A DNA stretch of 38,068 bases from a virus (taxonomy: Duplodnaviria > Heunggongvirae > Uroviricota > Caudoviricetes): IMG/VR virus record IMGVR_UViG_2534682157_000015. One strand, 5' to 3'. Below, in pieces: positions 11,477 to 12,559 of the stretch; positions within the stretch are counted from its first letter, which is position 1, and every line of letters starts with the position of its first letter. The notes beneath the pieces were generated by a model. That model was not told the origin of the DNA. It was given only the letters and a program-made list of their open reading frames with translations, and did no database searches. The position numbers and the translations under genes were made by a program.

Positions 11477-12559
11477 GTGAAAGAGTTGGAACTATATAAT
11501 CTGAATTTTTATTTTAGCTTGTGTACTTCAGATGAAGTGGAAAGAATAAAAAATGTATCAAACTCGGCGGATTACTTACTCAAAATTAGGGCTAATGCAA
11601 CTATAGAACATATCAGAATCCATCGGGTATTACTAGCTGCAATGCGTAGAAGTGGAAATAATTGGTCATTAAGTAGTTATTTTGATGATTCTCCTTTTGA
11701 GGATTATATTGATGATGTTTCTGAACAGTACAAAGAACATCTAGAAGGGATCTCTGGCGGATTTGTATTTTGCAATGATCCGAATGGTCGGATATTAAAA
11801 ACTGATTATGGATGTGTGATTACTATTTCAGAATCACTTAAGTATTTTTTGTATTACATGAATTTAGCTTTTTTAACTTTTGATGATTGTGATGTTCCTG
11901 ATGATGTAAGAATTGCTGCATTAAGAATTGCAATAAGAACTATGATGCAAAAGGAATCAATGGATTTTGAAATTGATCCACGTGGTATAATTCCATCACA
12001 AATTGATATGGAAATTAGGTACCATGTAAATGATGTGATGAAGTTTATTGTTGGTCATGAATATTCACATTACGTACTTGGGCATTTGAATGATGAATCA
12101 ACTTTCGAGGCGAGTTTTTTAACCTCTATTGATACGGAAGAAGTTAAACACAAATTTTTCTCCTATGACCAAAAGGATGAACTAGCAGCAGATATTCATT
12201 CTTTACGAATGTTGTCGCTTTCTAAAGAAAAATTGGCTGGGTTAATTCAAAAGGTTTGTATCTACTTCGTGTTCATGGATATATATTCAAATGTAAAAGA
12301 TCAGGTGTCACCTTCACTTAATTTCACAAAGACTCACCCTGAACCAATGGATAGGCTTAGAAATATCATAGAAGAGTTTAAGGAGGAAGTGGAAATTGAT
12401 TATAATGAAATGGATAAGTTCATCAGATCAGGTGAGGTCATAAAGGGTTTCTTGCAAGATGATGCTGGGTATAATTTTGATGAAATATATGATTTTTATG
12501 GATCAATTTATTTAGGTCAGTGGAGGGGAAAGCCGTTAATAGATAGGGTAGACTATTGA
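11477..12559 (+). CDS. HExxH-motif protein, putative zinc metallopeptidase-like accessory protein (360 aa)
   Basis: GTG start with GAGG SD; motif VGHEYSHYVLGH; AT-rich; divergent from the three-gene operon. Confidence 0.55.
   Translation: MKELELYNLNFYFSLCTSDEVERIKNVSNSADYLLKIRANATIEHIRIHRVLLAAMRRSGNNWSLSSYFDDSPFEDYIDDVSEQYKEHLEGISGGFVFCNDPNGRILKTDYGCVITISESLKYFLYYMNLAFLTFDDCDVPDDVRIAALRIAIRTMMQKESMDFEIDPRGIIPSQIDMEIRYHVNDVMKFIVGHEYSHYVLGHLNDESTFEASFLTSIDTEEVKHKFFSYDQKDELAADIHSLRMLSLSKEKLAGLIQKVCIYFVFMDIYSNVKDQVSPSLNFTKTHPEPMDRLRNIIEEFKEEVEIDYNEMDKFIRSGEVIKGFLQDDAGYNFDEIYDFYGSIYLGQWRGKPLIDRVDY

Follow-up and report, generated by a model that had tools for sequence, protein, structure and literature searches.

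The window analyzed here, a stretch of 38,068 nucleotides (IMG/VR record IMGVR_UViG_2534682157_000015), is a P2/186-like prophage of Escherichia coli, and its positions 1477-22559 are 100% identical to AFDV01000032.1 (GCA_000225125.2). Between its cos site and the portal gene Q it carries a gene for a protein of 360 amino acids (aa), which is annotated by NCBI as 'hypothetical protein'. We propose that this protein is a soluble, stand-alone protease of the M48/Lit lineage, carried as one-gene cargo at a cos-proximal hotspot, and that it may act in a latent, Lit-style abortive infection. This reading as a whole is given about an even chance, and its parts are graded separately. An active M48-like peptidase is regarded as highly probable, and an independent single-gene module as very likely too. 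A role in anti-phage defence, as suggested by context and homology, is slightly favoured. That the enzyme kills the cell in the manner of Lit, by cutting a core cellular protein, is a tentative and rather unlikely further step. The gene is most likely a one-gene anti-phage defence, and it is a good candidate if an unsurprising one at a known hotspot.

Lit cleaves EF-Tu when triggered by a peptide of the major capsid protein (Gol) and causes late exclusion of T4. To our knowledge, it is essentially the one classical example of abortive infection by a single-protein protease, and its wider family is poorly mapped. According to our proposal the gene would be transcribed from a promoter of its own, giving the lysogen a zinc endopeptidase that stays latent. 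A product of another, infecting phage would either activate it or make some cellular protein cleavable by it. The cleavage would then hit a phage protein or an essential protein of the host, perhaps one of the translation apparatus in the manner of Lit and EF-Tu, and the infection would be aborted, protecting the prophage and the clonal population. Latency, trigger and substrate are what we infer from the likeness to Lit.

Gene, motifs and predicted fold

The open reading frame (ORF) starts with GTG at 11477 and ends with TGA at 12557-12559. A longer 5' extension is ruled out by an in-frame TGA at 11471-11473, and the GTG start is supported since the homologues, 356-360 aa in length, align from residue 1-3. 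The GC content of the gene and of its cassette is 0.33, that of the downstream phage core 0.565. A comparison with an 86%-identical homologue from another sample (locus L098) gave a ratio of non-synonymous to synonymous substitution rates (dN/dS) of 0.078; purifying selection is strong, and the ORF is a real gene. A chance occurrence of HExxH is excluded by this ratio together with the matches to Pfam Peptidase_M48 (PF01435), found in 56 of the 63 family members (E ≤ 0.01). The sequence-only reading, made by a model before any database search, had described a 360-aa AT-rich ORF with a GTG start and a GAGG Shine-Dalgarno sequence, divergent from a three-gene operon and without an adjacent helix-turn-helix (HTH) partner. 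All of this was confirmed by the sequence, the GC content, the opposite strands of gene and operon and the flanking spacers, which hold only ORFs of up to 47 aa. Neither an HTH gene nor any other partner gene was found near the target. The small spacer ORFs (30-47 aa) were considered as partner genes and rejected for want of support.

The peptide VGHEYSHYVLGH (residues 192-203) contains the HExxH of the active-site helix. Together with two further motifs downstream it forms what we take to be the M48 signature set, HExxHxxxxH, ExxAD and THPxxxxR, as in the sequences of HtpX, BepA and Ste24. In an alignment of 63 homologues (35-86% identity) the residues H194, E195, H198 and H203, E235, A238 and D239 as well as H287, P288 and R293 were invariant. 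The Pfam model of Peptidase_M48 matched the protein with 25.2 bits (gathering cut-off 20.3) over residues 229-297, E235 included, this match covering only model positions 134-182 of 186.

In an AlphaFold2 model with the family alignment as input (pLDDT 90.6, pTM 0.90) the N-terminal domain (about 1-90) is helical; it is followed by a sheet of three strands (93-118), the HExxH helix (174-200), a 'glutamate helix' (232-244) and more helices. In this model the HExxH sits in a confident M48-type metallopeptidase fold, and E235 on the glutamate helix is the putative third zinc ligand, as in the gluzincin type. The earlier assignment of HExxH as a zinc-metallopeptidase signature is thus borne out by the invariant motifs and the Peptidase_M48 matches, and the structure prediction favours a peptidase fold as well. 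The best structural match of the model was BepA, with about 166 of the 360 residues aligned. Foldseek against the PDB gave nothing at E < 0.25, and no PDB chain was found by sequence with phmmer (single sequence) or hmmsearch (family profile). A search of BFVD returned one match, an uncharacterised Myoviridae protein (TM 0.36). The protein has no transmembrane segment (maximum Kyte-Doolittle average 1.4), and no signal-peptide-like N-terminus was seen by eye; it is therefore taken to be cytoplasmic.

The relation to Lit was apparent at the level of profiles. A comparison by hhalign of the family with an alignment of 33 Lit sequences gave a probability of 86.8% and an E-value of 4.3e-6 over 207 columns, covering the sheet region and the three motifs. 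A remote kinship with Lit is supported because this profile-profile match includes all three motifs. BLASTP against Lit of the cryptic prophage e14 aligned only 17 residues around the HExxH. Judged by these comparisons, the target family is best regarded as remotely related to Lit inside the M48-like radiation and not as a Lit orthologue.

The cassette between cos and the portal gene

The sequence-only reading had called a cos site and had placed the peptidase gene alone between it and the portal gene. Both statements proved right. The 19-mer GGCGTGGCGGGGATACGAG shares 15 of 19 positions with the cos annotated in phage 186 and 14 of 19 with cosL of P2. It sits in a block conserved among P2-like phages (Fels-2, Klebsiella, E. 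coli), and the identical 19-mer occurs in the related loci L001, L094 and L098. The sequence ceases to match other E. coli P2-like prophages after 11172 and matches them again from 12743-12782. The distance from cos to the portal stop is 1548 bp here versus about 190 bp in P2 and 186. The peptidase gene is the sole gene of this 1.57-kb foreign cassette. A GC content of 0.33-0.36 extends over about 8000-12750, that of the phage core being about 0.55. The coordinates are given in Table 1.

Table 1. Positions of the peptidase gene, its motifs and the surrounding features in the window
Feature	Position	Strand	Remarks
Replication gene gpA	5083-7497
DinI-like ORF			between gpA and the three-gene operon
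Three-gene operon (Rst_3HP)	8177-10927	-
cos 19-mer GGCGTGGCGGGGATACGAG	11146-11164	+	left edge of the cargo slot
AT-rich variable cassette	11173-12742	.	GC 0.33; between cos and the conserved part of Q
Shine-Dalgarno sequence GAGG	11467-11470	+	6 nt 5' of GTG 11477; direct sequence reading
Peptidase-like coding sequence	11477-12559	+	360 aa; predicted cytoplasmic M48/Lit-like zinc metallopeptidase
Active-site helix motif H194-E195-Y-S-H198-YVLG-H203 (HExxHxxxxH)	12056-12085	+	invariant in 63 homologues; aligns with HEISHVVLQH of Lit
ExxAD motif E235-L-A-A238-D239	12179-12193	+	invariant; aligns with E181-xx-A184-D185 of Lit
THPxxxxR motif T286-H287-P288-EPMD-R293	12332-12355	+	C-terminal M48/Lit motif; aligns with NTHPAAYER of Lit
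Perfect 11-bp inverted repeat CCCAAATGACA ... TGTCATTTGGG	12574-12620	.	25-nt loop; between the convergent peptidase and portal genes; ViennaRNA fold
Portal gene Q	12694-13740	-
Terminase gene P	13737-15503	-

The last approximately 16 codons of Q (12694-12742) lie within the AT-rich variable segment and differ from those of other E. coli P2-like prophages. A recombination junction is therefore located inside the 3' end of the portal gene. The inverted repeat between the two convergent genes occupies the place of the terminator tQ/tW in P2 and 186 and is possibly a bidirectional terminator. A scan for canonical terminators found nothing, this repeat included, and a scan with Rfam gave only a sub-threshold match to a viral cis-element.

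The interval from gpA over cos to Q is a published defence hotspot of P2 (PMC9122126; PMC13586616). Among its cargo are old, tin, Rst_3HP, DUF4238, PARIS and others (Rousset et al. 2022, PMC9122126).

A second AT-rich island was seen at about 21000-22000 between the tail genes S and V; it may be the Z/fun hotspot. It contains a DUF6216 ORF of 172 aa (21021-21536, minus strand) without a PADLOC match. This copy looks truncated or frameshifted, since the near-identical locus L091 has a version of 268 aa.

Distribution of the family and alternative functions

With the family profile, 1.84 billion representative proteins yielded 179 clusters (50% identity clusters) at E ≤ 1e-30, and 94 family loci were present in 185,579 species genomes. 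This sparse and patchy distribution included Proteobacteria, Bacteroidota, Firmicutes, Cyanobacteria, Acidobacteriota, Planctomycetota and Desulfobacterota. Searching 50,697 phage genome records by tblastn gave no family homologue; in IMG/VR there were 8 loci in 2.9 million contigs, all of them temperate or prophage-like. The target gene itself was not found in 5,426 complete RefSeq E. coli genomes (megablast, blastn). An index of public assemblies had the exact protein in 332 blocks, most of them from E. coli isolates with draft genomes. Since it is common in drafts and absent from the complete genomes, lineages poorly represented among finished genomes are suggested as hosts.

P2-like phages captured the family repeatedly, in at least five divergent lineages. 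These five (the window and L098 counted as one) share 31-47% mutual identity; four are located beside cos and one beside the tail gene D. Identity to the window protein was 45% in L099 (Pantoea) and in L103 and L104 (both IMG/VR), 44% in L102, 38% in L106 and 33% in L105. The order cos, gene, portal was the same as in the window in L099, L103, L104 and L105. In L102 the gene lies on the opposite side of cos from the window arrangement, and in L106 it lies beside an OLD/PARIS-like ATPase and the tail gene D. Additionally, L099 (7697, 7867) and L103 (3244, 3403) carry a second, degenerate cos-like copy (GGCGTGGCGGGAAAAG..) about 160 bp downstream of the true cos. In Pantoea-type cassettes such a copy is located between the true cos and the peptidase gene, and L104 has two cos-like 19-mers (315, 7562) 7.2 kb apart. 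These duplicate sites may be a trace of cassette movement between P2-like phages.

When 699 neighbour proteins of 78 loci were clustered all against all, no conserved partner gene emerged. The most recurrent neighbour was an integrase (9 of the 78 loci); otherwise only small lineage-specific clusters were found. Within the group of 42-50% identity, the neighbours of the Leclercia homologue are an integrase and a type II restriction-modification system that includes Vsr, and the Pseudomonas homologue lies beside T5orf172 and HEPN_AbiV. The homologue of a Bacillus cereus prophage is adjacent to an S8 peptidase and nSTAND3, that of a Providencia prophage is found between terS and terL, and the Colwellia homologue neighbours a TIR-STAND gene, a KAP NTPase and two genes that probably form a Hachiman pair. 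The Enterobacter homologue belongs to an integrative conjugative element on which TIR, DUF4238, Fic, McrA-like and ArdC genes are found as well.

A full-length homologue (L108), 30% identical and annotated as hypothetical, is present on pTiC58 (NC_003065.3, 61460-62647) near repABC; its neighbours there encode a RES-family toxin and a DEAD/DEAH helicase of 836 aa. Homologues of this type are conserved on 52 Agrobacterium and Rhizobium plasmids, Ti-type and related. A helicase partner, as the Hachiman-like and DEAD neighbours in Colwellia and pTiC58 might suggest, was rejected: BLAST gave no relative of the pTi helicase among the neighbours of other loci, and the Colwellia helicase together with an upstream 232-aa ORF looks like a complete HamA-HamB pair (HamB-type PADLOC matches; the HamA assignment is putative).

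N-terminal extensions of 35-110 aa were seen in 87 of 215 full-length homologues, among them P0055, P0065, P0066 and P0121-P0123. A SEC-C-type zinc motif (MGxGxxRNxLCxCGSGKKYKxCC) was present in 14 of the 87, and many others share a different domain of about 80 aa. The SEC-C motif is known from the tail of SecA that binds the ribosome and SecB. These extensions and the divergent AT-rich layout shared with lit/ymfE are weak pointers, and neither is evidence of function.

Several points weigh against a Lit-style defence protease. The defence role of family members is deduced from context and homology, and the kinship with Lit appears remote: the sole NCBIfam match of the target was the Lit equivalog NF007238 with 17.2 bits versus a cut-off of 274 bits, and no family member matched Pfam Peptidase_U49 (PF10463) at E ≤ 0.01. 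Faint PF10463 matches are listed for some members in precomputed annotations. No defence model of PADLOC-DB v2.0.0 was matched, the sole match being peptidase_U41 (E 0.027, 11.9 bits), and our literature search found no paper describing the family. Promoter-like sites 5' of the gene were no commoner than in shuffled sequence. Many immediate neighbours of distant homologues are housekeeping genes, so the enrichment in defence islands is anecdotal and unquantified. In the Enterobacter element the family gene lies near or between the relaxase and ArdC, which is a possible anti-defence setting.

This last point leads to the best surviving alternative, a protease of counter-defence or inter-element competition that would degrade host immune proteins or those of competitors (P4-like satellites, other P2-like phages) during induction, transfer or establishment. 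It would fit the neighbourhood of an anti-restriction homologue in Enterobacter, the homologues on conjugative Ti plasmids and the recurrent position at cos in P2-like phages, a region shared by P2 and P4 satellites (PMC9122126). However, none of the phage genome records had a homologue and the few IMG/VR loci were all temperate or prophage-like, most homologues are chromosomal and several of these lie beside defence genes, Lit as the nearest characterised relative is a defence protein, and the slot is known for defence cargo. We consider this alternative improbable.

Somewhat less probable still is a protease of host physiology or lysogenic conversion, of the M48 quality-control or regulatory type such as HtpX, BepA and LoiP. 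The M48 fold and motifs, BepA as the best structural match and the housekeeping neighbours of many distant homologues are in its favour, and the hotspot also holds non-defence cargo such as partition systems and the cytolethal distending toxin (Rousset et al., PMC9122126). Yet signal peptide, transmembrane segment and TPR domain are all missing from the target, less than half of it aligns with BepA, and its sparse, patchy spread on mobile elements and its foreign GC content argue for a different role.

A protease in the style of ImmA/IrrE, cutting the repressor of its own prophage or of a competitor and thereby controlling induction, appears quite unlikely. Such a role would agree with an HExxH metallopeptidase on a prophage, and the B. 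cereus homologue directly follows a co-oriented HTH_3 gene. But HTH_3 accounted for only 2 of 135 nearest neighbours family-wide, and the window has no adjacent HTH gene. The target had no match to Peptidase_M78 (PF06114) at E ≤ 1, it is located far from the CI/Cox-type switch region, and homologues are also found outside prophages.

The operon on the other side of cos is Rst_3HP; its three products matched Hp1, Hp2 and Hp3 of PADLOC at full length (E 1e-144 to 1e-245). Rst_3HP protects against P1 and was validated as three genes (Rousset et al., PMC9122126). In precomputed Pfam annotation Hp1 is assigned to PDDEXK_GAPS4 and Hp2 to GAPS4b_N; because of these assignments and a weak GapS4b match in NCBIfam, 3HP appears related to the GAPS4 system of Vibrio. 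Nearness and divergent orientation within one AT-rich island had suggested that the peptidase could be a fourth component or accessory of this system. However, 3HP was present at 80% coverage or more in 17 complete E. coli genomes, and the peptidase gene in none of the 5,426. In E. coli GZ2408P (L001) the slot between cos and Q (9647-11187) holds a cassette of a ParA ATPase and a hypothetical ORF of 131 aa, and the adjoining 3HP is 99.4% identical. Conversely, in GCA_000250075.2 (L094) the segment from cos over the peptidase gene to Q shares 99.6% nucleotide identity with the window, and 3HP is swapped for about 1 kb of unrelated DNA. This replacement DNA (8543-9544) contains an ORF of 176 aa (8756-9283, minus strand) without Pfam or PADLOC match, a further cargo gene of the hotspot.

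It follows that assortment is independent on the two sides of cos. Since either unit can be found alone in related prophages, the fourth-component reading is refuted, and we leave it only a negligible probability. It also disagrees with the validation of 3HP as three genes, with the position of cos between both units and with the neighbour clustering: no neighbour family recurs over the 78 loci, so none has a 3HP-like trio. Of the independent single-gene defence factor considered in the sequence-only reading, the single-gene independence is upheld by the 78 loci without a partner and by L001 and L094, and the defence role is so far deduced.

A morphogenetic role finds no support, as neither PHROGs nor the phage genome records contained a match to the target that would relate it to a known phage morphogenetic protein.

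Comparison with known systems

The hotspot as a locus type and a prophage protease as an exclusion factor are already known; the target family is distinct from what has been described. A 2026 survey in Nucleic Acids Research reports one 'Lit' in a single P2-like prophage, which may or may not be the target gene. It is conceivable, even if doubtful, that the target founds a phylum-spanning family of one-gene protease immunity, sister to Lit, in which the N-terminal domain or the C-terminal tail would sense a phage component. In that case 'Lit' would grow from a single curiosity to a broad class of trigger-gated suicidal metalloproteases captured repeatedly at the cos site of P2-like phages, and the substrate could be new, the SEC-C variants hinting at targeting of the translation machinery. 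Should the gene defend, it would be a compact immune gene of 1.1 kb for which escaper phages could lead to the trigger and N-terminomics to the substrate, and the Q side of cos would be shown to be a slot whose cargo assorts independently of that on the gpA side. Should it not defend, it would provide a clean test of how far a hotspot plus distant homology predicts function. It is conceivable, even if doubtful, that the target founds a phylum-spanning family of one-gene protease immunity, sister to Lit, in which the N-terminal domain or the C-terminal tail would sense a phage component.

With the cargo of the P2 hotspot the target shares the location at gpA-cos-Q, the small size, the foreign GC content and the fast swapping between near-identical prophages. 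It differs in lying between cos and Q; old, tin and 3HP are on the other side of cos, towards gpA. The systems that Rousset et al. named or tested do not include the family, and the terms 'M48' and 'metallopeptidase' are absent from the portions of their supplementary tables that were searched. Their 'Peptidase + TM' candidate was rejected as a characterised homologue, being a two-gene system. The M48 gene of the RRDM island in enteropathogenic E. coli was rejected as well, being a different protein encoded downstream of hsdR.

Compared to the M48 proteases HtpX, BepA, LoiP and Ste24, the HExxH helix, ExxAD and THPxxxxR are common to the target protein. However, the target lacks the membrane anchor, signal peptide and TPR domain by which HtpX, Ste24 and BepA differ from it. 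The M48 housekeeping proteases are conserved, whereas the target gene is mobile and sparsely distributed. ImmA/IrrE (Peptidase_M78, COG2856) is likewise an HExxH metallopeptidase on mobile elements, but the target has no M78 match and no cognate HTH partner, and its motifs are the M48-type ExxAD and THPxxxxR.

Lit is described as a latent prophage protease that is lethal only with the T4 capsid protein gp23 present, and co-silencing by H-NS has been reported for the divergent pair lit/ymfE (bioRxiv 10.64898/2026.09.05.749240). The layouts are similar, each with an AT-rich cargo gene divergent from another defence unit: lit/ymfE in e14 (bioRxiv 10.64898/2026.09.05.749240) and target/3HP here. 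Like the target, Lit is a stand-alone, soluble, prophage-borne HExxH zinc protease without a partner gene. Both proteins share HExxHxxLxH, QxxExxAD and THPxxxxR as well as an upstream segment (SLxYFL/SLEYLW). However, Lit comprises 297 aa and the target 360 aa, and three features of the target family are not found in Lit. These are the N-terminal helical domain (residues 1-90) with invariant D32, L34, L35, A39 and R50, the loop ExxDFxxDPRG (160-170) with invariant E160-xx-D163-F164-xx-D167-P168-R169, and the conserved C-terminal tail YGSxYLxxWRGKxLIDRVDY.

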